Shown: positions 3,843-52,400 of the stretch, one piece after another
Numbering within the stretch: the first letter of the stretch is position 1
How the letters are laid out: every line of letters begins with the position of its first letter
Virus record (IMG/VR): IMGVR_UViG_3300025689_000001
Coordinates: 1-64,000 of that record
Reading direction: 5' to 3' (one strand)
DNA from: a virus
Lineage: Duplodnaviria > Caudoviricetes
Length of the DNA stretch: 64,000 nt
Translations under genes and position numbers: made by a program
Notes under the pieces: generated by a model
Seen by the model: only the letters and a program-made list of their open reading frames with translations
The model's database searches: none
Told to the model about the DNA's origin: nothing

Positions 3843-4332
3843 TGGGCGTGGAGCGTCAGGTAAAACTACATTTGAAACAATGGTGCAGAAGATTGCCGCG
3901 GCAAGAGGAAAGAAAGTAAAAGTCATTTCTACTATTACATATGTAAAGGAAGTTGCAAAGCTGTTCGGTTGGGACGGAGGTAAGACTCCAGAGGATAGAC
4001 GATTCCTTTCAGACCTTAAGGATGCCCTCACTCGTTGGAAGGACCTTCCATATCAGAAGGTCAAGGGCTTCATTGAGATTTATGAATAGAGTGATACCAA
4101 CCTCTTATTTATCGATTGCCGCGAGCCTGAAGAGATTGCAAGGTTTGTTAACGACTACGGCGCACTTACAATTCTTGTTCAGCGTGGAGAGTTTGAATTA
4201 CTCGGTAACCATGCAGACGATAATGTTATGAATTATCAGTACGATGTTGTAATTGATAATAATAGAGGGCTTGACGAGTTAATGCAGGAAGCTACTATTT
4301 TTGAAGAGACTTTTGTGGAGGAAGAAGAATGA
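3823..4332 (+). CDS. Deoxynucleoside monophosphate kinase (P-loop), one in-frame TAG
   Basis: GRGASGKTT P-loop; after TAG 4087 continues LFIDCREPEE...NHAD...YDVVIDNN; AGGAGG RBS; TGA 4330-4332. Confidence 0.75.
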
Positions 4333-4646
4333 TTAAAGTTATCCAGTATAGTGTAGGAAAAGGTAAGGGTCGCGGTTGGGAAGTCGTATTTAAGGGCGAC
4401 AATAAACCCCTTAAAAAATATGAAAGACTTTGCCTTGGTTTTAAAGATGAAAATGGCAAATGGGTTGTTTTTGAAGTTGAAAATAAAACAACTAAAATTA
4501 ATGGTATGATTAAGGAATATATCTACGAAGCAAGTTTTCTTGGTTATTGTCCAGATACTACCATTGAACTTGATAAAGTTGACTTTGACTGGATTACTGA
4601 CAAAGAAGTTATAAGAGAAGCAGGAAAACAGGCTTGTTATACTTGA
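4329..4646 (+). CDS. Hypothetical protein
   Basis: ORF with ATGA overlap to the previous gene. Confidence 0.6.
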   Translation: MIKVIQYSVGKGKGRGWEVVFKGDNKPLKKYERLCLGFKDENGKWVVFEVENKTTKINGMIKEYIYEASFLGYCPDTTIELDKVDFDWITDKEVIREAGKQACYT

Positions 4647-8929: not shown

Positions 8930-9160
8930 ATGGAAGTTACACTTTATTCAACGGGCTGTCCCAAGTGTAAGGTATTAAAAAAGAAGCTCGAAGCGGCTAA
9001 TATTAACTACACGGAAGTGACAGATACGGACAAGGTTTATCAGATTTGCAAGAGTACTGGTTTCGATAGCGTACCGATTATTGCAATTGAAGATGGACAC
9101 ATTCTTGACTTTAACAGAGCAATCGCTTGGGTAAAACAGGTAGGTGATAACAATGCCTAA
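8930..9160 (+). CDS. nrdH: NrdH/glutaredoxin-like redoxin
   Basis: 76 aa, YSTGCPKC active site, SVP cis-Pro motif, adjacent to RNR. Confidence 0.8.
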   Translation: MEVTLYSTGCPKCKVLKKKLEAANINYTEVTDTDKVYQICKSTGFDSVPIIAIEDGHILDFNRAIAWVKQVGDNNA

Positions 9161-12100
9161 TATTGGTAGAAAGAATAAGAATTTTACGACACAGTGGAAT
9201 AAGTTACAGAATGAGTATGGTACAGAACTTGCATACCTTAATGGTTTTGGTGATGACCAGCTTTCTCTTGGTGAGTTTATTGACAACTTTGTTGATGAGC
9301 CGGTTGTAGCAGATAGCTCTATTGACTCAAACAGTAACGTAAGAAGAAAGGATATTGTAACACTTCTTTCAGAAATGCCTAAGCCTCATAGAAAGGTTAT
9401 GGCTTTTTAGAAGATTTATTATGAAATGTAGAAAGCATATGGCTTTAAGGCTGCTAACGAATGGCTTCGCCGCGACTGGACGGGAGAAATCTATATACAC
9501 GACGGAGATACAGCAACCTTTAAGTCTTATTGTTTTGCGTATGATTTAAAGGATTTGGCTGAGAAGGGACTTTATTTCCTTGGCGATACCTTCAATGCTA
9601 AGCCACCAAAGCACCTTACAACTTTTGTAGACTTCATAAAAGAGTTTATTAACTTTGCAAGTAATAGAACTTCGGGTGAATTTGCTGCGCCCATATGTTT
9701 CTTTTCTGCTAATCAGCAGGGTCGCATTTGCGGCTAACGGGGGAGGCTAAGTGAATGAATAATTCATATGTTAGTCCCGTGGGAATCATTAGAAAAGACA
9801 TCTACATTATTAGAAATGATATTAACACTAAGGTATATATAGGACAATCCTTAGATTCTGAACAGAGATTCAAATCTCATTGTAAGGGAGACTACGATAA
9901 TTCTTTAATTGATAAGGCAATTCAAAAATATGGATAGGAGCATTTCTGGTTTGAGATTCTTGAATCTCAAATAGAAAACTATAATGAAAGAGAACAATAT
10001 TGGATAAAATATTATAATTCATTAAAACCCTTTGGATATAATATTTTAAAAGGAGGAGAAACTCCACCAATACATTATGGCGATAATCATCCAAATGTAA
10101 AAATCTCAGACACGGATGTAGTCAAATTAAAACGAGACTTGTTAAAAACAGATATTTCATTATCTCAATTGGCAGATAAATATAGTATTTCAAAAAAACA
10201 AGTGTTAAGAATAAATCAAGGTATTAGTAGAGCATCTCTTAATGAAACTTATCCAATTAGAAAAAATCCAAATATGAATGGTAAATTGACAGAAGAAGAT
10301 GTAGATAATATCATAGATTTACTTAAATACACATATCGTTTTAATGGAGATATAGCGAGAGAATATAATGTTGAAGTTCATACTATATCAAAAATCAATA
10401 ATGGTATTATTCATCATCGAAATAACATTCAATATCCAATTCGTAATTGGAAAAGTTCTGGAATAAATTTATTTACTTATGAACAAGTAACTGAAATTAT
10501 TGAAGCCTTGTTAAAAACTAAAGAAAGTATTCAGTCTTTAGCAAAAAAATATAATGTAGATAGACGTGCTATTGAAAACATTAATCGTGGCACATCCAAA
10601 AAATATTTTCGAGAAGGACTGTCCTATCCTTTACGAAAATTCTAATGAAGCCTGTATCGACTATCCACGCTAAGTGGAGTACTCCTGCTATTGATACGCA
10701 GGGGGACAGAGAAACACTGCGACAAAGGTCGTAGGAAAATCCAGTCAGTTCCTATGGAAACATAGGAGTTCCGACGGCAGTCGGATTACCTAACCTTATT
10801 CCCTATATGTATTACTTCTGGAAAGAGGACCAGAAGAAAGCCTACTTCGGCATTACTGAATGGGACGAGTATGCTTATCAAAACATTCAGAGATTTATCT
10901 ATGCCGTTAACCAACCATGCGTAAGGGATAGAATCTAATTAGAACTGTCCATTTATTACTTTTCCAGTAATCACTGGGGTCACTTAAATAGTGGCTAACG
11001 AGGGAGCCTGAAGCCCCTGTCGGGAGACATAGGTATGGTAATCTCGTGGGAATCATTTAATTGCTCTAATAAAATAAATTAAAGGAGGTGAATAGATGGA
11101 AAAATATATTTATATAATTACAAATAATATCAACAATAAAGTTTATATTGGTCAATCCAATGACCCTAAATATAGATTTAATCAACATTGCCGCCCTAAT
11201 AATGATAATAGTTTAATAGATTTAGCTATACAAAAATATGGTAAAGAACATTTTACTATGTCAATATTAGAAGGTCCAATAAAAAATTATAATGAACGAG
11301 AAAAATATTATATACTTAAATATAATTCTTTAAGACCAAATGGCTATAATATTCTTGAAGGAGGAAATGAACCGCCTCTTTTTAAAGGTATTGAACATCC
11401 TGAAGCAAAATTTAAAACTAATATAGAATTAGAAAAAATTGTTTCAGATTTAAGATTTACAAAAAATAGTATAAGAGATATTGCGAAAAAATTTAATGTA
11501 TCTCCCTCTTGCGTAAGTGATATTAATTTAGGAAATACTTATTATAATTCAAATATTGAATATCCACTAAGAAAAAATCCTAATCCAACTGGCAAACTTG
11601 CTCAAGAAGATATTGAAGAAATTATCTATGCATTAAAGTTTAGTTATTTTTCTTATGAAGATATTGGAAAAAGATATGGAGTAGAGGGAAGGGCAATTTC
11701 AAGAATAAATAGTGGAACTTACCATAAGCAAGATAATATTTCTTATCCAATTAGACAATATCGGGCTACAAAAAACGCTGGTCAATTAACTTATCATCAA
11801 GTTTCAGAAATTATAGAGCTAATCTCTACGACAAAAATAAGTCTAAGGCAAATTGCATTACAATATAATGTAGCTCCAAATATAATAATTGGTATTAAAA
11901 ATGGTTCAACAAAAATGTATAGGAGAGATAATCTTATCTATCCACTTAGAGCAAATAATTAAATGAAGCCTGTATCGACTATCCTCGCGAAGAGGAGTAC
12001 CTCCGCTATTGATACGCGGGGGGAAAGAGTAATATTACTTTTAATTAAGTAATAAAAAATAGTCAGCGCATAATGAAAATTATGATAACGTGGGTCAGCA

Positions 12101-15100
12101 GTCTGCTTTTACAAATACATCTGTATTTGACAGAGAGTATCTTATGGCACTTTTCGGCGGAGCACAGTTCCCTAACGGTGAAGACATGGTTGACCACATT
12201 GATGGTATTATGGACTTCCAGAAACTTTATATGAAAGCTATGAGCGATATTCGTTCAGAGAATATGTTTACTTTCCCTGTTTCTACAATTTCACTTATAA
12301 GAAAGAATGGAGAGTTCCTCGACCCTGAGTTTGCGGAGTGGGCTATTGGACATAATATTAAATGGAGTGACTCAAACCTCTTTATTGATGATAATGTTTC
12401 AAGTCTTTCTAACTGTTGCCGCCTTAAGAGTGATATTCGTGACCTTGGGTATGTAATAAATGCCCTATTATCCCTTTACCAGTAATCTCTGGGGTATACT
12501 TTAAAGTATGCTAACGGGGAAACCTGAAGCCCTGTCGTGAGACATAGGTATGGCAATCCCGTGGGAAGTCTTTTCATCTATAATTTCTCTCAGCTAGAGA
12601 GGTGATATAGTGAAGAAAAGCATTTATGTAATTAAAAATAAAATTAATAATAAAGTTTATGTAGGTCAAGCAATAGACCCACAACGTAGATTTATAGCTC
12701 ATTTATCAAGAGCTAAAACAAATGTTGATAACTCTCCTATTCATGATGCAATAGAAGCATTAGGTAAAGAAAACTTCTATTATGAAATTTTAGAAAAAGA
12801 TATTGAAGATTATAATGAAAAGGAGAAATATTGGATAAAAAAATTGAATTGTAAACTTCCTAATGGATATAATTTGACAGATGGTGGCGAAGAACCACCA
12901 ACGTTTTATGGAGAAAATCATCCAAGAAGCGTTATACTTGATGAAACAGTATATAATATTATTGATGATTTAAAATGGAGTAAATTAACACAAGTACAAA
13001 TTGCAGAAAAATATGATGTTAATACACAAATGATTACTTCAATTAATAATGGTATAACTCATAAAATGGATTATGTTGATTATCCAATTAGAAAAGGAAC
13101 ACCATATCATTTATTACCAGAAGAGGTTGATAATATACAATGGTTATTACTTAATAGGGAATTTACAATAAAGACTATTGCAGAATACTTTCATGTATCG
13201 GAAGGAACAATAAAACACATAAATGCTGGAAGAAATTATAAAAATTCTGCTCTATCTTATCCTTTAAAAACAGGTAGAGCAAAAGGTGAAAAGGAACCTG
13301 TATCGACTATCCTCGCCAAGAGGAGTACACTTACTATTGATACGTAAGTGGAAATGGGGATATGCTTACACAGGATATGTAAGTATAAGAGATAGTCAGT
13401 GCCCACAGAAATGTGGGATTACATGATTTTAATTCCATCGGTGGTACTGCTTTGAAGGTTGGTTCTGTTAAGGTTAATACAATTAATCTTGCAAGACTTG
13501 CACTTGATACAAACACAAAAGAAGAGTATCTTGAAGAGCTGAAGGCAAGAACACTTTGCGTTGTTCGTTCACTTCATGTTGTCCGCCATATCATTGAAAG
13601 AAACGTTGAGAAAGGATTGCTTCCTAATTTCTCATATGGTCTTATTGATTTTGAACACCTTTATAATACAATCGGTTTCATTGGTATCTATGAGACAATG
13701 AAGAAGTTCGGTTGCACATATCAGGACAAACTCGGCAACACCTATTACACTCAGGAAGCCGCAGACTTCGGCAAGAAGATTTTCGATACCATGAGAGAGG
13801 TTGCTGATAAGTTTCTTGAGGAAGGCGGCTATGATTATAAGATTAACACAGAGCAGATTCCTAAACATCACTGGGAATGCGTGGCATAACGTCAAATAAA
13901 CCACGAAAAATAAAAAGTTCCACTAATTGACTTGGAGTTCTTTATAAGTTAGCGTTTCTTATAAAGATAACAGGGCGCAAGCGTAATGGTAGCGTGAACG
14001 ACTAAATGTGGAACCTCCAAATTGACTGAAAATATTGGAGATGCGATAGTCTGAACTCACTTATATATTGAAGAGTGAGAGAAATGGTCAAGAGTAAAGA
14101 CTCTTTAAAGAAGAACCATTTCCGCCAAATATATAAAGGAGTTGAAATGAAATGGATATATTAAATAGTTCAGGCTTTAAAATTGGAGTCGCTAAAATTG
14201 ATGGGGATTTAATTATCATAAATAATAATAATAAACCACTTTTAATTATAGAAGACGATTTAGAACTAATTCAAAAAATCAAAAATAAAGATGAAAGTGG
14301 TTTTGAAATATTGTTTAATAAATATTATCTCTTGATAGGAGAAATCGCCGCCCTTTATAATATGACTTATTCTACTACAAGAAAACATATGATAAAAATG
14401 GGCATTGATACAAAATCTAAAGCAGGACGCAGAAATTCGTCTTATGGAAAAACTTTTTCAGATGAACGAAAAGCAAAAATTGGTGCCGCGTCAAAAGGCA
14501 GAAAAATTACTCCCTATGAAAGGACTCCAGAAATTAAAAATAAGATTTCTGAAAGTTTATTAAAATATTATTCAGAGCATGAAGTTAGCGAAGAAACAAG
14601 AATAAAATTATCTCAAGCGTGGAAAGATGGCAAGTATGAAAATGCCAATATGGGACGTGGATATAATGGATTCTTTTACTCTATTAAAAATAATAAAAAA
14701 TTCTTTTTCAGAAGTTTGTTAGAACTATGTTATTTGATACAAATAGAAAACAATAAAGATATTTCTTTTTATGATATTGAACCATTTCAAATTAAACTAC
14801 CTAATAATCATCATTATACTCCAGACGTATTTTTAAATGGAGAAATTTTAATTGAATTAAAACCTAAAAAGCATTTATTATATGAAGATGAAGAAAGATT
14901 TAATTTAGAGGTATCTTCCGCAGAAGAATATTGCAAAAAACATAATTTAACTTTTAAAGTTATTTATGATGAAGATTTAGGTTTTAGAAGTGATAAATTT
15001 AAAAGATGGTTATTAAATAATAAAGAAGATTTAAGTAAATATCAAATTACTTTTTCTTCTAAAGATATTTGGTCATAAAAGTAACAGATTGGGTGAAAAC

Positions 15101-32033: not shown

Positions 32034-32217
32034 TAAAGATATGGTTGAAATTACAGTCGGAAAGGGTGGGCAGTACGAAGCCCACCTCGACGTCGATGAT
32101 AAAACAAGTTTTGTAATTAAGGACATAACTAATGTTAGATTTTTTGACTCAGTAAAACAAGAATGGATTGATATTGATTATAAAGGTCCAGTATCTTTGA
32201 ATTATAAGGAGGAATAA
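32023..32217 (+). CDS. Hypothetical small protein
   Basis: ORF overlapping the recJ stop, AAGGAG RBS. Confidence 0.55.
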   Translation: MTSDKDMVEITVGKGGQYEAHLDVDDKTSFVIKDITNVRFFDSVKQEWIDIDYKGPVSLNYKEE

Positions 32218-32236
32218 AAAATGGGAGAACTTTGTA

Positions 32237-32944
32237 ATGTCTAAAAGAATAGATTTAACTAATTAGACATTTGGTGATTGGTATGTTATTGATTTTAATA
32301 AAGAACGAAGTAATAATCATGGCTCTTATTGGAATTGTAAATGTCTTAAATGTGGACTAATAAAAGCAGTACGTTCTACCAATTTGCGCTCGGGTGCCTC
32401 AACAAGTTGTGGCTGTAAATCTTCTTAGATAAGAATTGGAGACAGGTTTGGATTTTTAGAAGTCATTTCCTTAGATGAAGAACGAAGTGGTTAGGGAAAA
32501 GGCAGATATTGGTCTTGTTATTGCCATAATTGTGGCAGCACGCATTCAATTGATGCTTCAAATCTAAATAGAGGAAATGCATTAAGTTGCGGCTGTATTA
32601 AAATGTCTAAAGGAGAATATAAAATTGAATAGTGGCTTAAAAGTCATAATATTAAATTTCACAAACAATATTATTTTGAAGACTTAAAACCTAATAATTA
32701 TCCTTTAAAATTTGACTTTGCTATTTTTAATCCGAATATAATACTAATAGAATATTAGGGCAAGTAGCATTATGAGCCAATAGATTTTTATGGTGGAATA
32801 GAAGGGTTATAGAAATAGCAATTAAGAGATAATCAAAAAAGGGAATATTGTTTATCACACAATATTCCTCTATATGAAATTTCTTATAAAGATAATATTA
32901 GTAAATTGGAGGAATGTATTTATGGAAATAATGAAACAAACTGA
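32237..32944 (+). CDS. Free-standing endonuclease: two Cys-rich (WxCxC..CG...SCGC) repeats plus DUF2726-like PD-(D/E)XK domain; 8 in-frame TAG
   Basis: IDLTN[TAG]TFG, SKGEYKIE[TAG]WL, LKFDFAI, IEY[TAG]GK[TAG]HY, RD..KREYC; TGA 32942-32944; absent from the standard-code ORF track. Confidence 0.85.
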
Positions 32945-33307: not shown

Positions 33308-33404
33308 GATGAAGGAAGATATGGCTCGCCGCAATAAGGAAATTCAGAAAGAGTGCGAAAAGAAGAAAAAACAGTAAGGTTGAAAAAGTCAGGGCTTAAA
33401 AGTC

Positions 33405-33433
33405 TTGACTTTTTCTTTATTTTATGATATAAT
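33405..33433 (+). promoter_or_regulatory. sigmaA-type promoter upstream of dnaE
   Basis: TTGACT-17-(TG)ATATAAT; -35 is the 3' arm of inverted repeat AAAAAGTCAGG...CTTGACTTTTT. Confidence 0.75.
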
Positions 33434-33511: not shown

Positions 33512-36500
33512 ATGGATATTAAGACACTCAAAAGATTTGACGGTCATTCCCATAGCATGTTTTCAAACTTCCGTTTGATTGACTCAATAAACAGACCAAA
33601 GGATATGATTCTTAAGGCATATGAACTTGGTATGTCAGGTATTGCACTAACAGACCATGAAACAGTTGCTGGTCATGTCGAATGGTTGAAGTGTGAAAAG
33701 GAACTGAAGAAAACTGGCAAAATTCCAGAGGACTTCAAGTGCGCTTGTGGCAATGAGATTTATCTTGTAGATGACCGTACAAATATTGAAAGATATTGGC
33801 ACTACATTCTCATCGCTAAGAACACAGAAGGACACAGGGCGTTGAGAGAATTAAGTTCAACGGCTTGGTATAATGGATTTAATTCTCGTGGTATGATGCG
33901 TGTTCCTACTGAAAAGGCAGAACTTGAAGCAATCGTTAGAAAGTATCCGAACACTTTGATTGCAACAACTGCGTGTCTTGGCGGTGAGTTTCCTCATTTT
34001 GTGGCGGAGTTAGTTAAGGCAGAACAAGCTCATGATGAAAATGAGATTCGCAAGTGGAAGATGGAAATTCATAAGTTCATGACTTGGAATATTGATTTGT
34101 TTGGTGATGATTTCTATATTGAAATCGCTGCCGCAAATGTGAAGGACCAGATTCGCTTTAATGAAAGAGTTAAAAGCATCGCTACCTACTACAAGAGAAA
34201 AGTTGTAATCGGTTCAGATGCACATTATCTTACTGCAAAGGAGCGTCCTGTTCATAAGGCTTATCTTAACTCAAAAGATGGTGAACGTGAGGTTGATGGT
34301 TTCTATACTTTCGCTCATATGATGGATAATGAAGAAGCATATGGAAATCTTAGCATGACTTTCTCTGAGGAAGAGTTCGCAGAGTTTTGTGCAAACTCAA
34401 TGGAAATTTATGATAAGATTGGTACTTATGATATTTTCAGAAAGCCAATCATTCCGAGAGTTGAAGTTGTACCAAAGGATTGTCCAGTAACTCCTGATTG
34501 GATTTGGAAGGATGATTGTCCGGTACTTACACAACTTATTCAGAGTGATAATGTACAGGAAAAGTATTGGGTAACAGAATGTTTACTCAGTATGATTGAT
34601 AAAGGACTTTTTGGAAAAGAGAATTATATGATTGTTCTTGAAACAGAAGCAAGAGTAATTAAGGTTGTTGGAGAGAAACTCGGTAACTGTCTGTACGAGT
34701 ATTTTAATACTTTCCAACATATGATTAACTTATTCTGGGATTGCGGTTCAATCGTAGGTCCTGGACGTGGTTCAGCAGTTTGTTTCTTAAGTAACTATCT
34801 TCTTGGAATAACTCAGCTTGACCCATTGAAGTGGGGACTTAAGTATTGGAGATTAACTTAATTTAAAGGTCTCCCTATATAGCGATATATAGAAAAATAA
34901 CTCCGTGAACGTTTAGCAAACGGTGTCGACTTTACTATTGGAACCGTAGGAAATGACGGTTAAAAAGTCGGCTAACAGGGAAGAGTCTTTATTCGTTAAA
35001 GAGAATCCTGTGCCAAGCTACTTAAATATTGGAGAGCCAATATTTAAGATGAAGGTGAAACGACTATCGAAAAGCATATTTAAATATGAACTGAGTAGAG
35101 TAGGATGGAGATGCTACCATCTGAAGCGCGGAGGCTCTCATAATATATCATATTAAAGAGGTGATAATTATGGGATATATTTATAAAATAGAAAATAATA
35201 TTAACCATAAAGTTTATATTGGACAAACAATTAAATTTTATGAAGAACGTTTTAAATAGCATAAGGTAAATTATACGAAAGAATATTTTTCATAGTTGGC
35301 ATTATATAAGGCATTTAATAAATATGGAATTGAAAATTTTACTTTCTTACCCATTGAAGAAGTTGCAAATGAACTTTTAGATGAGAGAGAAAAATATTGG
35401 ATTTCATTTTATGATAGCTATTATAATGGTTATAATTCTACTTTAGGAGGAAGATTAGTAGAATTATATGAGTGGGATGTTGATAAAATTATTGAAAGAT
35501 ATATGGTTTTAAAATCAGCTCGCAAGGTTGCAGAAGAAATCGGATGCGACCATTCAACTATTGATAGAATTTTAAATGAAAACAAAATTAAACGCTTTAC
35601 TTTAAAAGACCAAAGAGTTTATAACAATGTTGTTATTGAAAATGAAAAAGAAAGATATTTTTTCAAAGATAATCGAGAATGTGCAATTTTTCTTATTGAA
35701 AAAGGTTATAGTAAATCAAAAAATATTGATTATATATCTCATGTAATAAGAAAATCTATTAAACAAAATAAATATTATTTAGGTTTTAGAATATATTGTG
35801 AGAGCAAGATATAGTCTACACCCCTGGTGACAGGGGATTAATGTGTTTTAAATGAAGAGCGTGTAGAACTGCCTAAACTTTAATATTGGGCAGTATAAAA
35901 TGGGTGAACGCATTCAGCGGTGTCTTCTTAATTGAAGGCTAACGGTAGAAGTTGAATAAGGCAATGCGCGAAGCAGCTTCGTAAGAGAGACTACGGTCCT
36001 GAAAAGGATAGCAGTTGATACCGTGCTAAGTTAAACTTTATCTATTTTTCTGGAAAAGTTGAAGATTTATCTCATTCTAATACTTTATAACTGAGGTGAT
36101 AGAATGGAAAGAGAAATCAAAAACTTTCCCGGGTATACAATAACTGATGATGGAAAAGTTATCAGTTACAAATTTAAAAAGCCAAGAGTAATGAAAACTT
36201 GGTATCAAAAATCTGGATATGAAAATATTAAACTATGTAAAGATAATGTAACTTATCATTTCTTAATTCATAGATTGGTTGCAGAAGCTTTTATTCCAAA
36301 TCCAAATAATTTACCTGAAGTGAATCATAAAGATAAAAGTAGACAAAATAATCGAGTAGAGAACTTGGAGTGGAGTAATAGAGCAGATAATCTTTATGAT
36401 AGTTATAGTACAATGACTGCTACAAGAAATTTTAGAGAATGTATCTTAATAAGAGAGAAAGACAATGCTGAAATTAAATCTTTTCAATCTGTTAAAGCGG

Positions 36501-39500
36501 CAGCAGAATATGCAAATGAAGAATTTGGTTGTAGTATTAGTGGAATGAGAAAAAATTATAAATCCAGAGGATATAGATTAGAGTTTAAAAAGTGTAACGA
36601 CTAAATTGAGATTATAAAATCTCTAAAAGGATGGAGATGAATACCATTCCGTAGTGCCCATTATGGACAAAAGTCCTAAAGAGATAGTCTATTCCCCTAA
36701 TAAATATCGGGAAACCGAGGGTGTAAAAAGGATATTGATATTGACCTTACTCCTTCAAAGAGAGCTGCTGTTTTCGCCGCCCTTCGTAAGGAGCGTGGAG
36801 AGCTCAACGTTATTCAGGTTTGTACTTATGGTACAGAAGGTACTCGTTCTGCAATTGCCGCCGCTTGTCGTGGTTATCGCTCAGAGTGGTATCCCGATGG
36901 TATTGATACAGATACAGCACAGTATCTTAGCTTGTTGATTCCTCAGGAGCGTGGACTTCTCTGGTCAATTCATGATGCCGTTTATGGTAATGAGGAAAAG
37001 GGCAGGGCTCCTATCGCAGCTTTGGTAAATGAGCTTGATAAGTATCCCGGTCTTCTTGAGATAATCGAGTCTATTGATGGGTCGAAGAAAAAACTGGCCC
37101 TTAAACACCTTTTCCATTAATCAATGGGGTTAAGATTTAATCTTAGCTAACGGGGAAGCCTGAAGCTCCTGTCGTGAGACATAGGTATGGTAATCCCGTG
37201 GGAAAAACTTTTCTTCACGATTTTATTGAAGAGTATTTATCATTTTATTACCTTATTAATGAGAGGTGATAATAATGAATTATATATATGGTTATCAAAA
37301 TAAAATAACAGGTAAATGGTATGTAGGACAAACTTCTAAGTCTATTGAAGAAAGACATAGATTACATTTATCTTCTGCTTATCATGAAACTTGTAATGAT
37401 TATAATTGCTTATTCCATAAAAAAATTAGAGAATATGGTATTGAAAATTTTGAATTAGTTCTATTAGAACAGGTTATTGACAAATCTTTATTAGACGAAA
37501 GAGAGCAATATTGGATAAAAGAAAAGAAGTCTTTTGTTAGAGACAACGGATATAATTTAACAACTGGCGGCCAACAAAGAAAAAATAATGAAGACTATCA
37601 AGATATCCGTCAAACGTTTTCCAGTGAAGAAATTCAGGAAGTATATCGTCTAATAAGAGATGAAAACATCAAACTTACAGATATAGCAAATAAATATGAT
37701 GTTTCTTTAAGTTTAATTTGTATGATTAATTCTGGTAAAAAATATCATAATGATAATTTAATCTACCCTTTAAGAAAACAAAACATTAAAATTTCTGAAG
37801 AAATTGTCGATGAAATAATTTCTTTATTAAAAGAAAATAAAGGTAATGCAGAAATTGCTAAGATTTATGGAATAAATGAAGATGTGGTTTATAGGATTAA
37901 TAAAGGTTTAGCACATAAAAGAGATATTGATTATCCAATTAGACAAAACAGTAGTAAAAAGCAAGAGCTTATTGATAGAGCAAATACAATTAAATCTTTA
38001 TTAAAAGAAAATAAACTTAATAATAGACAAATTGCTGATTTAGTAGGATGCGATCCGTCTGTTGTATCTAATATAAATTATGGAAAAAATTATTATGATA
38101 ATACTCTTGAATATCCGTTAAGAAAAAGTTAAACCTGTATCGACTATCTCTGGTGAGACAGAGAGTAGGGACACTATTGATACGTGTCGCCACGGAGGCA
38201 ACAATGTGGCTGAGAACCGAAATGGGGTTATTAGTATTTTATACTAATTAAAAGATAGTCAGGGCTTGATTGAAAAATCAAGATAACCGTAGTTAATAAG
38301 AGAGGACAGCACGCATCTGGTGTTATTCTTTATAACGATTCTCCATTTGAAACTGGCGCAATTATGAGAAGTCCGAACGGAGATTTGACAACACAATATT
38401 CTCTTCACGAAGCAGAGGAACTTGGAGACGTTAAGTATGACTTCCTTGTAACTGAAATTTGTGATAAGCTCACAATTGCAATCAGTTTGCTTCAGAAGGA
38501 TAATTTAATTGACCCAACCCTGAACTTAAGAGAGGTTTATAATAAGTATCTTCATCCTGACGTTCTTGACCTTAAGGACCAGAAGATTTGGGATGCACTT
38601 AGTAACGGTACGGTTCTTGATGTATTCCAGTTCAGTACGGGCGTTGGTCTTGCAACTGCAAAGCAGGTTAAGCCGCAGAATCCTACTGATATGCTTAACG
38701 CAAATGCGTCGACATTGGCGCTTACACACTTTACCTTTAATCAAAGGGGTTAAGATTTAATCTTAGCTAACGGGGAAGCCTGAAGCCCCTGCCGGGAGGC
38801 ATAGGTATGGTAATCCCGTGGGAAATATTGATTCACCTCATAGGAGGTGATAGAATGCATTTAATATATTGTTATACAAATTTAATCAATAATAAAAAGT
38901 ATATTGGACAAACAAATAACTTAAAAAGAAGAATAAAATAGCATAAAGATGATTCTTTTACTAATTATAGTGAAGCAAGATATAATCAATTAATTCATCG
39001 AGCTATTAGAAAGTATGGTTTAGATAATTTTGAAATAAGCGTCTTAGAAGATAATATCTCTACGGAATTAATTGATGAAAAAGAGAAATATTATATAAAT
39101 AAATATAATACAATAGCTCCAAATGGATACAATTTAACAGAGGGTGGAATGGCAAACAAAACTGCTCCAGTTCCCTCTAAATATGAAGATGTTTTTATGA
39201 TGATAGTAGAAGAATTAAAAGGAGCGAAAAGCCTTAAAGAAATTGCAGGACAATTTAATATGTCTTATTCTTATTTAAGTGATATAAATAACGGAACAAG
39301 ATTATTTCATGAAAATATAGTTTATCCAATAAGAAAAAGTTCAAATTCTCCAAGTAAAGAAGATTATTAGATTATTATTGATATGATAGAAAATACAAAT
39401 TTATCTTGTGCTAAAATAGCTCAATAGTTAAATTTAAATGCTGCAACGGTTAGAAAAGTAAATAATGGATAGATTAAAAAAGTGGTTAATTTATTTCCTG

Positions 39501-42500
39501 AAAAGACTTTTCCGCTAAGAAAGGTGAATCAATAAACCTGTAGAGACTATCTCTGGTTAGACAGAGAGTAGGTTTACTATTGATACGTAAATCAAAATGG
39601 TGTGCCGTAAGGTAAAAGATAGTCCAGACCACAAACAGTTGCCCAGCTGGTAGAGAAATCTATAGTGGTATGTAATGAGACTTATGGGTGAGCCTGGAGA
39701 GGAAAGACCTCTCAATAGATATTGCCGTCTTAAGGAAGATATGAGAGCATGGTACATGGAGGCAAAAGATGCTGGTCTTACAGAAGAGCAGATTAAAACT
39801 CTTGAACCATATTATCTTCCTAACTGTGGAGTTCCTTCTTCACAGGAAGACATGATGGAAATCTGTATGGACGAAAAGATTGCAAACTTTAGTCTTTCTG
39901 AAGCAAATGCGACAAGAAAGATAGTTGCAAAGAAGAAAATGGACCAGATTCCTGCTCTTCACGAGAAGTTTGTAAATGCTTGTCCGACAAAGAGATTTGG
40001 AGAATATGTATGGAAGACAACAATGGGTCCTCAGATGGGATAAGTAACGATTGTCCTATCAAATACCCTTTCTTCTTATCAGAAGGGTTCTAATTTATTA
40101 GAGCTAACGGTTGAACCCAACACTTATAGATAGAACAAAAAGCTATCTGTAAGAAGGGCAATCCCGTGGGAATCATCTTATGGATAGTAATAAATGGAGT
40201 TGATATAATGTATTACATTTATTGCTATAAAAATAAAATTAATGGACATAAATATGTTGGACAAACAAACAACATAAAAAGAAGAATTAATGAACATAAA
40301 AGCGCCGCCTTCAATGAAAATAGCGGTGATTATGATTTATTATTTCATAAAAAATTAAGACAATATGGAATAGATAATTTTGAAATAGTTATTTTAGAAG
40401 AAATTGACTCAAATGACCAGACTGTAGTTGATGAAAGAGAACAGTTTTGGATTAAATTTGAAAATAGTTTTGTTAGAAATGGTAAAGGATATAATCTAAC
40501 AGAAGGCGGTCAGTTCTCTAAGACAGTTAATAAAAAAATATCTTTGGAAGATGCAAAAGAAATTCAGCAAATGATATTAAAAGGTAAATCATATGAAGAT
40601 ATTCAAAATAAATATAATATCTGTCCAAGTTATATTACAATGATAAATCAAGGGAATTATTTCTATGACAAAGATTTAAGTTACCCTCTTCATAAATATT
40701 ATAAATCAGATGATGATTATAATGAATTAATTGATTTACTTAAATATAGTGATTTATCATTAAAAGCTATTTCAGAAAAATTAGGTTTTGGATATTCAAC
40801 AGTCAAAAAGATTAATGAAGGTAGACTTAGAAAAGGCTTATCAGAAGAATATCCAATAAGAAAAAAGACCGTGTATGCAATAAAAGCAGATAGGGTTAAA
40901 GATTTATTATTAAACTCTACTTTAACTATTCCAGAAATAATGGTTGAGACTAAAGTAAGTCAAGAAACTGTTAGACGTATTAATATTGGTGAGTCACATC
41001 ATGACTCAAATTTAAACTATCCATTAAGATGAAGCCTGTATCGACTATCGCGGGTTAAGCCGCGAGTAGGGTGACTATCGATACGTCACTCGAAACGGGT
41101 ATTGGCGCTCCTAATAAGGAGCGAGTTAAGATATAGTCAGAGCCTATAGGAATATAGGATTACTCGATTCATTTGCAAAGCCTCATGCTCTTGCTTACTC
41201 ATTCGTTGGTATTCAGACTCTTTATCTTGCAACAACATATTCCGACATTTATTGGAATTGTGCTTGTTTGATTACAAATGCCGGCGGTGCGGATTTACTT
41301 GACACAGAAGATGTGGACAAGGAACTGGAAGAAATGGCAGAGCAGGATATTGAGGAAGTCGACGAAGACGAACTCATTGAAGCAATTAGTAAAAAGTATA
41401 AGAACAAGAGCGTTAACTATGGTAAGATTAGTGTTGCTCTTGGTAAGTCTAAAAAGGCAGGCATTAATGTTTTGCCGCCAGACATCAATAAATCAGACCT
41501 CATCTTTAAGCCAGATGCAGAGCGTAATGCAATCATTTATGGTTTGAAGGGTATCGACAGAATTGGTACAAGCCTTGTTTATGAAATCATGGAAAATCGT
41601 CCTTATACTTCTCTTGAAGATTTTACTAATAAGGTAAAAGTTAATAAAACTCAAATGGTTTCCTTAATTAAGGCAGGTGCATTTGACAATATTTATGGTG
41701 ACAGAGAAAAGACAATGGACTCTTATCTTGAACTCATTGCAGATAAGAAAAAGCGTATCACTTTGCAGAATATGACAATGTTGTATAATAAAGGTCTTAT
41801 TCCAGAAGAGCTTTCGTTTGAAGCAAAGGTTTATAACTTTACTAAGTATATTAGAAAGTTCAAACAGGGAGATTATTATTATCTCAATCATATTGCAATG
41901 AGATTCTTTATGGAGAATTATGACACAGATGTGCTTGTAGATATGGTAATTGACGGTGAAGATAATCACGCTTTAATTAAGCAGTCAACATGGGATAATA
42001 CCTATGATAAGGCAATGAATCCAGTAAGAGCATGGATGAAAGCAAATCAGGAAGAAATTCTTAGCACATTGAACAGAAGTCTTTTCGAAGATGTTCGTAA
42101 CAAGTATGCTCTTGGTTCGATTGATAAATGGGATATGGACGCCCTTGGTACATATTGCCACAATCATGAACTTGCAAATCTCAATAAGAGAGCATATGGA
42201 ATTGTAGATTTCGAGAGTCTTGACCCTGAGCCAGTAATTGCGTCTGAGTTCACAACAAAGGACGGCGGCGTAATTAGAATGTATGAAATTTCAAGAATCT
42301 GCGGAACTGTTATTGATAAGGATAAGAATAAGAGTACAGTAGTTCTCTTAACTCCTACAATGCAGGTTGTAAACGTAAAGGTTTGGAAAAATCAATACGC
42401 AAAGTGGGATAGACAAATTAGTAGAAAGAATCCTGATGGTACTAAGACAGTTATTGAGAAGAGCTTCTTCGCAAGAGGTAATAAACTGATTATAACTGGT

Positions 42501-42635
42501 ATTCGTCGTGATGATGATTTTGTACCTAAGAAGTATAAGAGTACTGCTCTTCCTCTCTTTGAGAAAATTGAGGAGATGGACGAAGAAGGATTCATCACAA
42601 AGTCTACAACAGAACGTGCGGAGGTAGAGGAGTAA
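33512..42635 (+). CDS. dnaE: DNA polymerase III alpha (C-family), 6 exons (33512-34853, 35846-35874, 36731-37082, 38290-38709, 39673-40041, 41167-42635), 1326 aa spliced
   Basis: PHP HSH/TDH/SDAH, GPGRGSA; junctions restore YWR(F)LNEERVELP|DIDID, IDG(L)VNKRGQHASG, NA(L)MRLM, MG(Y)SFAKPHALAYS; exon total 3981 nt, in frame, no TAG. Confidence 0.93.
34854..35845 (+). mobile_element. Group I intron dnaE-I1 (HEG in P8 region)
   Basis: GGAGAT| pairs IGS GTCTCC, 3' exon TTTTAAAT pairs ATTTAAAG; CGACTAT...AAGATATAGTC; ends in G. Confidence 0.9.
35170..35841 (+). CDS. Intron-encoded GIY-YIG homing endonuclease; 3 TAG (the last lies in the P7 strand)
   Basis: GYIYKI...VYIGQT, RFK[TAG]H, GYN, HTH; TAG 35812 read-through gives TAA 35839-35841. 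Confidence 0.85.
35875..36730 (+). mobile_element. Group I intron dnaE-I2, inserted immediately before the catalytic DIDID
   Basis: ACTGCCT| pairs IGS GGGCAGT, 3' exon GATATTG pairs TAATATT; GACTA/GATAGTC; ends in G. Confidence 0.9.
36104..36604 (+). CDS. Intron-encoded NUMOD4-HNH homing endonuclease
   Basis: FPGYTITDDGKV, IHRLVAEAFIPNP, VNHKD...NN.VENLEW. Confidence 0.9.
   Translation: MEREIKNFPGYTITDDGKVISYKFKKPRVMKTWYQKSGYENIKLCKDNVTYHFLIHRLVAEAFIPNPNNLPEVNHKDKSRQNNRVENLEWSNRADNLYDSYSTMTATRNFRECILIREKDNAEIKSFQSVKAAAEYANEEFGCSISGMRKNYKSRGYRLEFKKCND
37083..38289 (+). mobile_element. Group I intron dnaE-I3
   Basis: Splits Leu T|TA; IGS AACTG-GCCC pairs both exons; conserved core; ends in G. 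Confidence 0.9.
37275..38132 (+). CDS. Intron-encoded GIY-YIG homing endonuclease with 3 repeats
   Basis: YIYGY...WYVGQT, GYN, three IN.G...YP(L/I)R repeats. Confidence 0.9.
   Translation: MNYIYGYQNKITGKWYVGQTSKSIEERHRLHLSSAYHETCNDYNCLFHKKIREYGIENFELVLLEQVIDKSLLDEREQYWIKEKKSFVRDNGYNLTTGGQQRKNNEDYQDIRQTFSSEEIQEVYRLIRDENIKLTDIANKYDVSLSLICMINSGKKYHNDNLIYPLRKQNIKISEEIVDEIISLLKENKGNAEIAKIYGINEDVVYRINKGLAHKRDIDYPIRQNSSKKQELIDRANTIKSLLKENKLNNRQIADLVGCDPSVVSNINYGKNYYDNTLEYPLRKS
38710..39672 (+). mobile_element. Group I intron dnaE-I4
   Basis: Splits Leu T|TA; IGS CATTG-GCGC pairs both exons; core nearly identical to I3; ends in G. Confidence 0.9.
38855..39535 (+). CDS. Intron-encoded GIY-YIG homing endonuclease with 2 repeats; 4 TAG
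   Basis: LIYCY...KYIGQT, RIK[TAG]H; TAG 38939, 39368, 39425, 39470; TAA 39533-39535. Confidence 0.85.
40042..41166 (+). mobile_element. Group I intron dnaE-I5
   Basis: Splits Tyr T|AT; GGGAT pairs GTCCT; CCTGTATCGACTAT...AAGATATAGTC; ends in G. Confidence 0.88.
40208..41032 (+). CDS. Intron-encoded GIY-YIG homing endonuclease with 3 repeats
   Basis: YIYCY...KYVGQT, GYN, repeats ending YPLH/YPIR/YPLR. Confidence 0.9.
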   Translation: MYYIYCYKNKINGHKYVGQTNNIKRRINEHKSAAFNENSGDYDLLFHKKLRQYGIDNFEIVILEEIDSNDQTVVDEREQFWIKFENSFVRNGKGYNLTEGGQFSKTVNKKISLEDAKEIQQMILKGKSYEDIQNKYNICPSYITMINQGNYFYDKDLSYPLHKYYKSDDDYNELIDLLKYSDLSLKAISEKLGFGYSTVKKINEGRLRKGLSEEYPIRKKTVYAIKADRVKDLLLNSTLTIPEIMVETKVSQETVRRINIGESHHDSNLNYPLR

Positions 42636-43557: not shown

Positions 43558-43586
43558 TTGACTTTACTAATCAATTATGTTATAAT
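43558..43586 (+). promoter_or_regulatory. sigmaA-type promoter
   Basis: TTGACT-17-(TG)TTATAAT. Confidence 0.75.
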
Positions 43587-49400: not shown

Positions 49401-52400
49401 AGGAGTGATACCATAAAGGTCTTGTTCTACTTCGTCGCCGTCAAGCATTCCCTTCGCGATATAGTAGCTCATATCAATGATAAAACTATCTTTTGATGGG
49501 TTATCTTCAGCGGTCTTAATTGAACATAAACCAGTTTTTGAAAGGTCACTATCTACATCAAGAACATAGAGTTTAGTAACAATTTTATCACTAACAATAC
49601 TTCTACTAATGTCTTTAAGATTCTTTTCATATCTAAAACCAATCTTATTCTCTTTACCCTTTTCTCTAATATAGAAAACCTTTTTAAGGTATTCGTCATT
49701 TTCATCCTTAATCACTGAACCATTAGACTTGTGTTCAATATAGAATTGAGGATAAACTTCAAATACTTTACTTGTCTGCTGTATAATATTGAAACGATTA
49801 GATTTGTTAATACTCAAAGTACGGATGCGTCTATCATGCTTTTCAGTAGGAAATCTAAAAGGACAATAGCCAAATTTCTGATAGAAACAAGTATGTCCAT
49901 TTCCATACTTACAGTCATGTTCTGTTAAATCAGCTTCTTTATCATAATAACTACATTTGTTTAAATCAATATAGTTTGTTTGGATTTCATAATCATCTTC
50001 TGTATACGCCGCGGCATCAAGAGGTAATACATCTTTACCAATCTTATCAGGGTCACTACTGATGAATGCCTTTGCTCCCATTGTATCATAGTATTCTGGC
50101 TCTTCATCTTTTGTCTTTAATCTTTGAATATAATAGTGCTGGTAACCGTAAGTTGAACCAAGCATAATATCGTCTTCAAAAATAATCATGTTTCTGATAT
50201 TGATTTGGTTTTCAACATCTTTGTCATAGAACGTATTAATAGTTCTCTCATATGCGCCTTTATCAATAACAGAAGTCTTCTTGGGTGCCCAGAACAAGTT
50301 TCTGCCGCTGTAACGATATTGTAACTTTCCATTTGTATTTGGAAAAGCATCTATACCTTTTGTGTATGCTTCAAAAAGATAAAGTCTTAAAAGAACAATT
50401 TTCTTTGCTGAAGAAATTACAAAGTAAGGATTTTCAATATCTTTCTTAGTCTTAAAAAGAATATAACGTGTATCAAGAGTTTCTGGAATAATGAGATTTT
50501 TCTTTTCGTCATTAAGATTCTCTGGCATAGAAGTGTGGTCTATAATTATATCTCCATTTGGTCCACAGTCAAATACAAGCTGATTTTCTTCTGATATTGT
50601 ATATTCTCCATCAGAGATAAGCGCGCCCTTACCAATTTTTATTTTGAAATCGGTATCAAAACAAGCAGAAACACCGAGACAATAGATTTTATCTTTCTCA
50701 ATTTTCTTGTCCTGTCCAATAATACCAAAGTTTACAATTTCTTGTCCATTGTTTGCAGAAATATCGCCGTCTTTTGAATCTGTCTTTGCATCTTTTAGCT
50801 CTACTTTGTTATCAGCTTCCCTGTATTCCCAAGAAGCAGTTTCAACAGTGTAATGTACTTTTCCAGTATTATCAGGAGCAATATAATCTGCTTCTTTTGT
50901 ATCAGTTATTTTTACAATAGAAAGCAAAGCTCTTTGCACAGCGTCGCCTTTTGCAAATAAGAACTTATAATCGTTTCCACTCTTAAAGTAATAATTAAGA
51001 CCAATGCCATAGATGTTGATAAAACCTTGAGAAGCCCTTAATGGAGCAATAAGATTATCCATAACACGAGTCTTCATTGTGCATTCGCTAATCTCTGACC
51101 ATTTACGACTATTGGTAGAAGAAAAGCTGAAACGCATATTATCTACGGCTGCACTACTTGGATTATTAGGTCCAGCTTGTCCTTCTTTAGGAACTACCTA
51201 AAAAATCTCTGCCGCTTTCACCGCCGCAGGCTGATATACTAAAGCAGAAGTTGAAATGCTTTCCTCATCTTCTGATTTTGAAACTCCTCTATGTGTTACA
51301 GTAGGAGTAATAAAGATGCTGTTTTCAAGAAGATAAGACATAGGAGACCAACCATCTGTAGAATCCATATCTGTACCATTCTGTACAAGGTTACGGGCGA
51401 GCTGCGGAATTATCTGACGTGTTTCAAGTTTTGAACATACACGATAAGATTGTTCATTTTTAGTTTTTTCTCCAACCTAATATTCCCAGTCTTCGCTACT
51501 ATACTCATTAGCAAAATCATCTGCATGAGCATTATAGACTGTTGTATACTGGTCAATCTCTTCGGAAATATTTACTTCTGTTCTATTTGTAATAGAAAAC
51601 TTCTTGCCTTTAACAATACTATTCTCATTTACATCACAAAGATAGCCGTCATAAGTAACATACTTATTTCCAAGAGAATCAACGTTATTCTCTTTATCGC
51701 TCTTATATTTAAAAGTATGACTGATTGAAGGAGCTTGAACATCCGCAGAACCAAGAGCCTCAGCTTGAACAAGTCTTGTATCTTCAAATATATACCATTT
51801 ATTTCCTTGAACTGCATTATTCCAATCAGCGAGAGTCATGAAGAAAGTATAATCTTTGTTCATAATAACTCCGCCGTCATCGAGTTCTAATATACCAGTT
51901 TTTGGAATTGCATAGAACTGAATGATAGTTCTTGGGTCAACAGACTGAGGAGCAAGAATTAGTTTTCCGTCTACTGCGATTGTAGTTTCGGTCGCCGCCC
52001 TGTCATACTTAAGTTTATCAGTAAAATTAGGCTCTTCCTCTGTACCATAGCAGAAGCCAAGGCATGAATAAGGAACATAAATATATCCATCATTTGGAAT
52101 GTCAGTATGATATTCTTTTGTAAGAGCGTTGCGAACCGTGCCGCCTTCAACATATTCATCCCAGAAGTAGCCGCGTGCCAAATCATCACTTAATTCAACT
52201 GGACGAGAATCTCCTGTGAAAACATTTTCCACAAAGTCTGTTCCTGTCTTTTCTTTGATTTTATCACGCTGTTCCTATTCAAGTTCGAAGTTTAACTTGT
52301 AGCCGTTAATACTGCCGCCGAAGCAACTAATTGGAATACGGTAAAGTTTCTCTTCTTTATATTCAGTAAAATCACCCCAGTTATTTTCGGGATGATACTG

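Follow-up and report, generated by a model that had tools for sequence, protein, structure and literature searches.

How a gene cut into six pieces, one of them 29 nt long, can still yield an intact DNA polymerase is the question raised by the dnaE locus of the Caudoviricetes record IMGVR_UViG_3300025689_000001. The stretch analysed here (the window) comprises the first 64 kb of this phage's single contig, which is 122,745 bp long with a GC content of 37%, is classed as 'linear' by IMG/VR, and is about 75% complete according to CheckV. An earlier note had described dnaE as split by five group I introns, each with its own homing endonuclease gene (HEG), and had called this a very heavy load. 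The current analysis leads to much the same picture: dnaE very probably carries five self-splicing group I introns (IA-like, with P7.1/P7.2), each harboring an HEG, and the assignment of the inserts to group I is supported by every criterion that could be tested at the sequence level.

Exons, junctions and the spliced frame

The dnaE locus occupies positions 33512-42635 of the window (plus strand, 9124 nt), 56% of which is intron. Its junctions were located by scoring all possible joins against the intronless orthologue L007, which exactly reproduced the exon total of 3981 nt of the earlier note and yielded five introns and six exons that form a frame of 1326 aa, closed by a TAA stop and free of internal stops:

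33512..34853, plus strand: dnaE exon 1, 1342 nt; PHP domain and start of the Pol III alpha domain, ending in ...YWR plus U
35846..35874, plus strand: dnaE exon 2, 29-nt micro-exon; completes F, then LNEERVELP; provides P10 of I1 and P1 of I2
36731..37082, plus strand: dnaE exon 3, 352 nt; begins with DIDIDL
38290..38709, plus strand: dnaE exon 4, 420 nt; ...VNKRGQHASG..., end of the Pol III alpha domain and start of the finger domain
39673..40041, plus strand: dnaE exon 5, 369 nt; finger domain
41167..42635, plus strand: dnaE exon 6, 1469 nt including the TAA stop; YSFAKPHALAYS..., HHH_6 domain and C-terminal part

At every junction, the exon closes with U and the intron with G in the best or tied-best join, in line with what had been noticed before. 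The spliced protein reads YWR^FLNEERVELP^DIDIDL, SIDG^LVNKRGQHASG, NANA^LMRLMG and GPQMG^YSFAKPHALAYS (carets mark splice sites), and the predicted ligated sequences include ...TGGAGAT^TTTTAAATG... and ...CTGCCT^GATATTGAT... In the comparison with intronless orthologues, from which L023 was left out, the spliced protein is collinear at an identity of 68-84% and shows a gap at none of the five junctions, through which the orthologues run continuously; 27-29 nt of exon 2 stand uninterrupted in these relatives. The combination of this gapless alignment and the low dN/dS of the spliced frame (0.09-0.14), i.e., purifying selection, indicates that the spliced frame is what selection sees. The claim that splicing restores conserved motifs holds insofar as the joins are collinear with the intronless relatives, but not for GQHASG, which lies wholly within exon 4, five residues from the join.

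The Pfam domains PF02811 (PHP), PF07733 (DNA_pol3_alpha), PF17657 (finger) and PF14579 (HHH_6) follow in this order on successive exons of the same strand, and by its sequence the gene is a bacterial-type DNA polymerase III alpha (DnaE, C family), with 39% identity to the nearest DnaE in GenBank. By analogy with DnaE of E. coli, the DIDIDL motif of exon 3 would hold the catalytic aspartates. The exons cannot work as separate genes, because one of them has only 29 nt, four of the five joins lie inside a codon after its first base, and the upstream frame reaches a TAA 2-44 nt inside each intron. All five introns must therefore be excised to obtain an intact polymerase, which supports the earlier proposal that polymerase output depends on five self-splicing events, the splicing itself being predicted.

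Guide pairings and ribozyme cores

The five introns and their helices are as follows:

34854-35845, plus strand: intron I1, 992 nt; P1 guide GUCUCC at 34869-74, P10 guide AUUUAAAG at 34861-68, terminal G at 35845
I1 core, plus strand: P3 34901-07/35127-33; P7 35062-67/35811-16; P8 35134-39/35800-05, with the nuclease gene in its loop; P9 35821-36
35875-36730, plus strand: intron I2, 856 nt; P1 guide GGGCAGU at 35888-94, P10 guide UUAAUAUU at 35880-87, terminal G at 36730
I2 core, plus strand: P3 35899-905/36656-62; P7 35988-93/36685-90; P8 36665-76; P9 36694-721
37083-38289, plus strand: intron I3, 1207 nt; P1 guide GCCC at 37097-100, P10 guide AACUG at 37092-96, terminal G at 38289
I3 core, 5' part, plus strand: P3 37104-09/38224-29; P4 37150-55/37194-99; nuclease gene in the P6a loop
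I3 core, 3' part, plus strand: P7 38142-48/38254-60; P7.1 38147-64; P7.2 38170-88; P8 38228-51; P9 38265-82
38710-39672, plus strand: intron I4, 963 nt; P1 guide GCGC at 38718-21, P10 guide CAUUG at 38713-17, terminal G at 39672
I4 core, plus strand: P3 38725-30/39599-604; P4 38770-75/38814-19; P7 39545-51/39618-24; P7.1 39550-67; P7.2 39573-91; short P8 39604-13
40042-41166, plus strand: intron I5, 1125 nt; P1 guide GUCCUAUC at 40053-60, weak P10 at 40049-51, terminal G at 41166
I5 core, plus strand: P3 40062-68/41097-103; P7 41043-48/41133-38; P7.1 41049-64; P7.2 41071-89; P8 41105-23; P9 41143-58

Anchored on the U.G pair, the guides of I1 to I5 form 6, 7, 4, 4 and 8 bp with the 5' exon (P1) and 8, 8, 5, 5 and 3 bp with the 3' exon (P10), so that both the claimed pairing with the 5' exon at each junction and the pairing with the 3' exon, clear in I1-I4 and partial in I5, were recovered. 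Among 2000 shuffles of the first 60 nt of each intron, the observed sum of P1 and P10 was reached by 1, 0, 204, 55 and 27, and the combined support is strong. The ribozymes of I3 and I4 are about 90% identical over 111 + 56 nt, and yet their guides differ and match their own exons, with GCCC/AACUG facing GGGU^UAGUU in I3 and GCGC/CAUUG facing GCGU^UAAUG in I4; read from the sequences, this difference is covariation between intron and exon.

The earlier note had named a lack of P3/P7 pairing as one finding that would speak against it; both pairings could be placed in all five introns. P7 is formed by the R (..GACUAUC..) and S (AAGAUAUAGUC or AAGAUAGUC) elements, which correspond to the segments UUCAaAGACUA and AAGAUAUAGUC of the RF00028 consensus, and its strands are GACUAU(C)/(G)AUAGUC in I1 and I3-I5 and AGACUA/UAGUCU in I2; the helix is invariant and hence without covariation signal. 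P3, of 5-7 bp, links the stretch just after P1 to the stretch just 5' of P8, and the strand order P3 (5'), P7 (5'), P3 (3'), P7 (3') is the same in every intron, i.e., P3 interlocks with P7 as a pseudoknot. Compensatory changes in P3 are found between I3 and I4 as well as between the window and its relatives: CUCCGUG/CGCGGAG in I1 is CUUUGUG/CGCAAAG in L015/L021, AAUGGGU/GCCCAUU in I2 is AAUAGGU/GCCUAUU in L019, L004 and L008, and AAUACCC/GGGUAUU in I5 is AAUAUCC/GGAUAUU in L020. A canonical 5' strand of P3 right before GCUAAC/J3-4 (e.g., UCUUAGC/GCUGAGA in I3) was rejected: I4 shares this 5' sequence and has no partner for it, and in the I2 family the segment is a local hairpin whose sides change together (CUUC/GAAG versus ACAC/GUGU) with the distal region unchanged.

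The remaining helices complete this architecture. P/Q-like elements (..UAACGGGGAA.. / ..AAUCCCGUG..) are present in the dnaE introns, and a P4-P6 domain with P/Q elements is formed by ACGGGG/UCCCGU and equivalents, of which only the 5' strand was located in I2. P7.1, P7.2 and P8 were placed in each intron, and P9 in all but I4. For the I3/I4/I5-type core P7-P7.1-P7.2-P8, an alignment of seven sequences, all from relatives, has 99.3% of its cells paired, with 14 of 22 pairs changed on both sides; none of 500 shuffles reached this pairing, and slid controls pair at 30-46%. An alignment of 20 sequences made with MAFFT (A1), which misaligned P7.2/P8 between long and short forms, was replaced by per-sequence constrained folds and the 7-sequence alignment. 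The covariance model R1 built on the latter has six matches in the window, all on the plus strand:

38134-38264, plus strand: R1 match in I3, 51.3 bits, E 1.5e-9
39537-39628, plus strand: R1 match in I4, 64.6 bits, E 1.1e-12
41035-41142, plus strand: R1 match in I5, 65.6 bits, E 6.7e-13
10651-10750, 11969-12068 and 13297-13401, plus strand: R1 matches in nrdD, 62-88 bits, E 4e-12 to 3e-18

A weak match at 50896-51000 (plus strand, 22 bits, E 0.012), where long open reading frames (ORFs) run on the minus strand, is probably spurious.

Several observations weigh against five introns that all splice unaided. The P1 and P10 score of I3 is equalled by 10% of shuffles, P1 has only 4 bp in I3 and I4, and P8 of I4 is very short. 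The 5' strand of P3 is set apart from J3/4-P4 by one or two well-supported hairpins, an arrangement that may not be the usual one in this subgroup. The upstream frame of I3 and I4 extends 38-44 nt into the intron, over the guide sequence, and translating ribosomes could therefore disturb folding. Finally, RF00028 found nothing over the window at its gathering score (50 bits) or at E <= 10, and in scans of slices it gave 11.5 bits for an ORF-less I2-type allele (L004) and nothing for an ORF-less I5-type allele (L020).

The search with group I models suggested by the earlier note has thus succeeded with relatives-only R1, which matches I3, I4 and I5, and with RF00028 only below threshold. In a run over the whole genome, RF00028 touched the 3' ends of I1 (35732-35837, 23 bits, E 5e-5) and I2 (11.8 bits); a 271-nt slice of I2 gave no match. 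The ORF-less I3 allele L005:12966-13319 (folding z = -4.2) was aligned end to end, P4, P5 and P6 included, in a slice search at 23.8 bits (E 4e-4), below the 50-bit threshold. The sole match above the gathering score is a canonical group I intron about 9 kb 5' of dnaE in a relative (L020:732-956, 78 bits, E 2e-18). Three control loci, namely the split terminase region of Twort, the polymerase region of Romulus and the polymerase intron of the SPO1-like phage Jayan, are also missed by RF00028. Its null result is therefore weak and is not counted against the introns; the reach of RF00028 is limited for this subtype and for introns with large ORFs.

Nuclease genes and TAG recoding

Each of the introns contains one nuclease gene:

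35170..35814, plus strand: GIY-YIG HEG of I1 (HEG1); in-frame TAG at 35257 and 35293; PF01541 at 32.7 bits over the whole profile with TAG read as Gln
36104..36604, plus strand: HNH HEG of I2; HNH_3 (PF13392) at 34.1 bits (cut-off 24.8); no in-frame TAG
37275..38132, plus strand: GIY-YIG HEG of I3, 285 aa with repeated helix-turn-helix modules; PF01541 at 36.1 bits; no in-frame TAG
38855..39535, plus strand: GIY-YIG HEG of I4 (HEG4); in-frame TAG at 38939, 39368, 39425 and 39470; ends in TAA
40208..41032, plus strand: GIY-YIG HEG of I5, 274 aa; PF01541 at 50.5 bits; no in-frame TAG

The inventory of four GIY-YIG genes and one HNH gene given earlier is borne out by Pfam matches above the cut-offs (22.6 bits for PF01541), for I1 and I4 only when TAG is read as Gln. 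HEG4 then matches the full PF01541 profile at 46.9 bits, in contrast to 17.4 bits, below the cut-off, for the longest piece under code 11; the HEG1 piece 35296-35814 has no GIY-YIG match under code 11. The HEG of I2 additionally shows NUMOD4 (PF07463) at 19.7 bits, below the cut-off of 23.4. A GAGGTGAT-type ribosome-binding site lies just 5' of the ATG of all five genes, which are inserted at different places of the ribozymes. HEG1 occupies the P8 loop, with its final codons contributing strands of P8 and P7, the HEG of I2 lies in a peripheral region after P7.1, and those of I3-I5 lie in the P6a loop, with the last codons of the I3 gene forming the 3' strand of P6a. HEG1 ends at TAG 35812 inside the 3' strand of P7; if this codon is also read through, the end is TAA at 35839-41.

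The phage reads TAG as Gln (code 15), because its genome contains two tRNA genes with the anticodon CUA, TAG-rich late ORFs, and TAG at conserved Gln positions or at those where orthologues have CAG. The two tRNA(CUA) genes, out of nine tRNA genes, lie side by side at positions 121331-121484 of the genome (minus strand), beyond the window. In the late block (46464-91454 of the genome, minus strand), two giant ORFs of 2141 and 2653 codons carry 14 and 37 in-frame TAG and no other in-frame stop. In an alignment of 18 GIY-YIG nuclease genes of the phage and its relatives, TAG stands at the invariant Gln of the YIGQT motif and alternates with CAG (Gln) among direct orthologues; the orthologues of HEG1 have CAG at its TAG positions. 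Even within dnaE, one relative has TAG where another has Gln. A reading of HEG1 and HEG4 as pseudogenes was rejected: their six internal stops are TAG without exception, neither gene has a frameshift, and TAG is recoded in this genome. As judged from their frames, both genes are full-length only under the phage's own code.

The replication-gene block on the plus strand, including dnaE, is far scarcer in in-frame TAG than the late block, and the dnaE exons have none. Full-length HEG1 and HEG4 should need the phage tRNA(CUA), and their synthesis may lag behind that of the TAG-free polymerase. A comparable case has been reported for Agate phages, in which a group I intron endonuclease in an early gene is enriched in recoded stops and recoding was proposed to delay the nuclease until late infection (Borges et al., bioRxiv 10.1101/2021.08.26.457843). 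In Agate phages, TGA is recoded to Trp and one intron is concerned, whereas TAG is recoded to Gln and two of five nuclease genes are affected here. By analogy, the putative timing of the nucleases is a further instance of the Agate logic and not a new idea.

The ORF immediately 5' of dnaE (32201-32944, plus strand) has eight in-frame TAG, which is unusually TAG-rich for the early region; read with TAG as Gln, it gave no Pfam match.

Relatives, rival explanations and intron load

The distribution of the introns was assessed in a first set of 24 related IMG/VR loci found with exon 1 as query, seven of which have an uninterrupted dnaE, and by a second scan with exon 4, which brought the total to 80 full-length dnaE loci (some contigs are represented twice). 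Most of these loci are free of inserts (57), while 14 have one, 8 have two and a single one (L039) has three; L021 (= L042), counted among those with two, includes a 1927-nt double insert that matches I1, the micro-exon and I2, and hence has three introns. With a maximum of three elsewhere, the five introns of the window are the highest number in the sample. At four of the five sites, other contigs carry homologous introns, and further sites (aa 620, 843 and 964) are used in other alleles. Introns in L013/L022 are 95% identical to I5 and share its site. ORF-less alleles exist for I2 (L004, ~4066-4577) and I3. The 354-nt I3 allele of L005 is 96-99% identical to the ribozyme parts of I3 and keeps the last nuclease codons (..NTLKYPLRKS*), which indicates that an internal deletion removed the gene and spared the ribozyme.

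The I4 site (aa 714) carries an insert in none of the 80 loci. Judged by sequence, I4 looks like a recent move, because it combines an I3-type ribozyme with a nuclease gene nearer to that of I5 and a target (ATGCGT^TAAT) that resembles the I3 target (ATGGGT^TAGT). In-frame dnaE inserts of about 1.2 kb lie at aa ~500 in L005 (11498-12736), L006, L011 (6047-7288) and L075, and at aa ~156 in L052. Those at aa ~500 are considered inteins because they start with Cys and end with HN followed by Cys (C...HN^C), i.e., the same polymerase gene family hosts inteins and introns.

From this anatomy we infer the following course of splicing, catalysis, homing and timing. Transcription would start at one near-consensus promoter of the host type and give a dnaE pre-mRNA of about 9.1 kb:

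33405..33433, plus strand: near-consensus sigma-70/sigma-A promoter, TTGACT-17-TATAAT with TG, 79 nt before the dnaE start

It matches the hexamers at 11 of 12 positions and overlaps in part a terminator-like hairpin (33382-33415); promoter-like sites in the region are in total not more frequent than in shuffles, and only this one and another at 43558 stand out. In each intron the internal guide would align the splice sites through the U.G pair of P1 and the pairing of P10 with the 3' exon, and two guanosine-dependent transesterifications would excise the intron up to its terminal G. Five such removals, two of them beside the micro-exon, would give the 1326-aa Pol III alpha frame. During co-infection, the nucleases may cut the intron-free dnaE of relatives, each at the corresponding conserved motif of the polymerase, with repair copying the intron in; such homing would account for the patchy presence and absence across relatives.

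This interpretation has to be weighed against three others. There is a small chance that one or more of the inserts, most likely I4 or else I3, no longer splice unaided although they descend from group I introns, with a phage or host protein being needed or with dnaE being effectively dead and the host polymerase being used for replication. The 4-bp P1 of I3 and I4, the minimal P8 of I4, the unique and possibly recent site of I4, and the lack of an Rfam match at threshold are consistent with such a loss, and a record that is only about 75% complete leaves viability unproven. The spliced frame, however, is intact and under strong purifying selection, the I3/I4/I5-type cores are conserved with abundant compensatory changes, and I4 itself reaches a score comparable to that of I5 with the relatives-only model and has a guide tuned to its own exons.

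It is very improbable that dnaE is a 'fractured' gene, split by free-standing endonuclease genes, whose pieces assemble as subunits or are joined by protein trans-splicing and not at the RNA level. Phage genes split by free-standing HEGs and fractured genes with split inteins are known (PMC2677866), and relatives have in-frame inteins in dnaE. A 29-nt piece and four joins after the first base of a codon are nevertheless difficult to reconcile with separate proteins, the exon pieces have neither a start codon or ribosome-binding site at their 5' ends nor intein motifs, and every insert has guide pairing, R/S elements and a terminal G. Just as improbable is an assembly artefact, in which repeated intron-like sequences made the metagenome assembler add inserts to dnaE. 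The contig is indeed a metagenomic assembly, and the near-identity of the I3 and I4 ribozyme parts is the kind of repeat in question, but each insert has unique flanks, a guide that fits the adjoining exons and a nuclease gene that differs from the others, the exon order is collinear with that of the relatives, and four of the five sites are independently filled by homologous introns elsewhere. Five self-splicing group I introns remain by far the most probable reading.

Among known phage introns, that of the T4 td gene carries the GIY-YIG gene of I-TevI in the P6a loop of an IA2 intron, with one intron per gene and the standard code. The dnaE introns resemble it in the P6a-loop GIY-YIG gene of I3-I5, the P/Q-like elements and the in-frame stop soon after the 5' splice site, and differ in that five of them share one gene and a stop is recoded. 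With the Twort-like, K-like and SPO1-like introns of Herelleviridae they share IA-type ribozymes with P7.1/P7.2, a position in conserved motifs of essential genes, and multiple copies per gene. The present phage is, in contrast, unrelated to Herelleviridae and uses TAG as Gln, and the host gene is a C-family dnaE instead of a family-A polymerase, terminase or nrd gene. Sequences with 87-96% identity to the 3' module of I2 (~36681-36727) occur in 233 Firmicute phage records, where they lie in stretches without annotation within split terminase, polymerase and nrd genes; for Twort, Romulus and Jayan, the identity at the split genes is about 92%. I2 and the intron in the family-A polymerase of Bacillus phage Jayan have an identical P9 module, and both 3' exons start with GATATTGA:

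36731-36745 of the window versus L003:2547-2565 (Jayan DNA polymerase): look-alike 3' exons

The sequences hint that I2-type introns moved between unrelated polymerase genes at look-alike sites.

Three introns are the highest number found in the literature for one phage gene; papers on four, five or six group I introns were found only for organelles and eukaryotes. For Twort orf142, three group I introns and exon skipping have been described (Landthaler & Shub 1999, as summarized in PMC11878797), compared with five introns here. The DNA polymerase and TerL genes of Bastillevirinae contain as many as three group I introns, the majority of them IA2/IA3-like and most with an HNH or GIY-YIG gene, and a small internal exon between two introns as well as exon skipping were found by cDNA sequencing (Weglewska et al. 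2025, PMC11878797). Splicing was verified experimentally for these phages with their maximum of three, whereas it is predicted for the five introns of the present gene. The 'very heavy load' of the earlier note was therefore well chosen, with three as the maximum both in the papers found and among the related loci.

The gene for the anaerobic ribonucleotide reductase, nrdD (9135-15000, plus strand), is also split, by three introns of the I3/I4/I5 ribozyme family with one GIY-YIG gene each:

9755-10642, 11078-11959 and 12541-13344, plus strand: GIY-YIG genes of the nrdD introns

Together with the five in dnaE, the window thus holds at least eight group I introns.

A more speculative and rather unlikely idea is that the five nucleases act jointly as a multi-site weapon, each cutting a competitor's polymerase at a different catalytic motif during co-infection. 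If this were true, the 57 intron-free loci among the 80 would represent the targets, HEG1 and HEG4 would be held back until the amber-suppressor tRNA is active, and the load would be kept by selection (interference competition or marker exclusion) and not only by parasitic accumulation.

In terms of intron load, dnaE is a record and the most intron-laden phage protein gene documented here; it takes a well-known phenomenon to a quantitative extreme and represents no new mechanism or kind of system. Standard gene callers would present this polymerase as about a dozen fragments. The clade represents a comparative series with intron-free, ORF-less (I2, I3) and differently occupied alleles, inteins, and the retargeted pair I3/I4. 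It would therewith provide a natural system for how introns reach new sites, how serial splicing is coordinated around a 29-nt exon, and how recoding may serve as a timer of nucleases.

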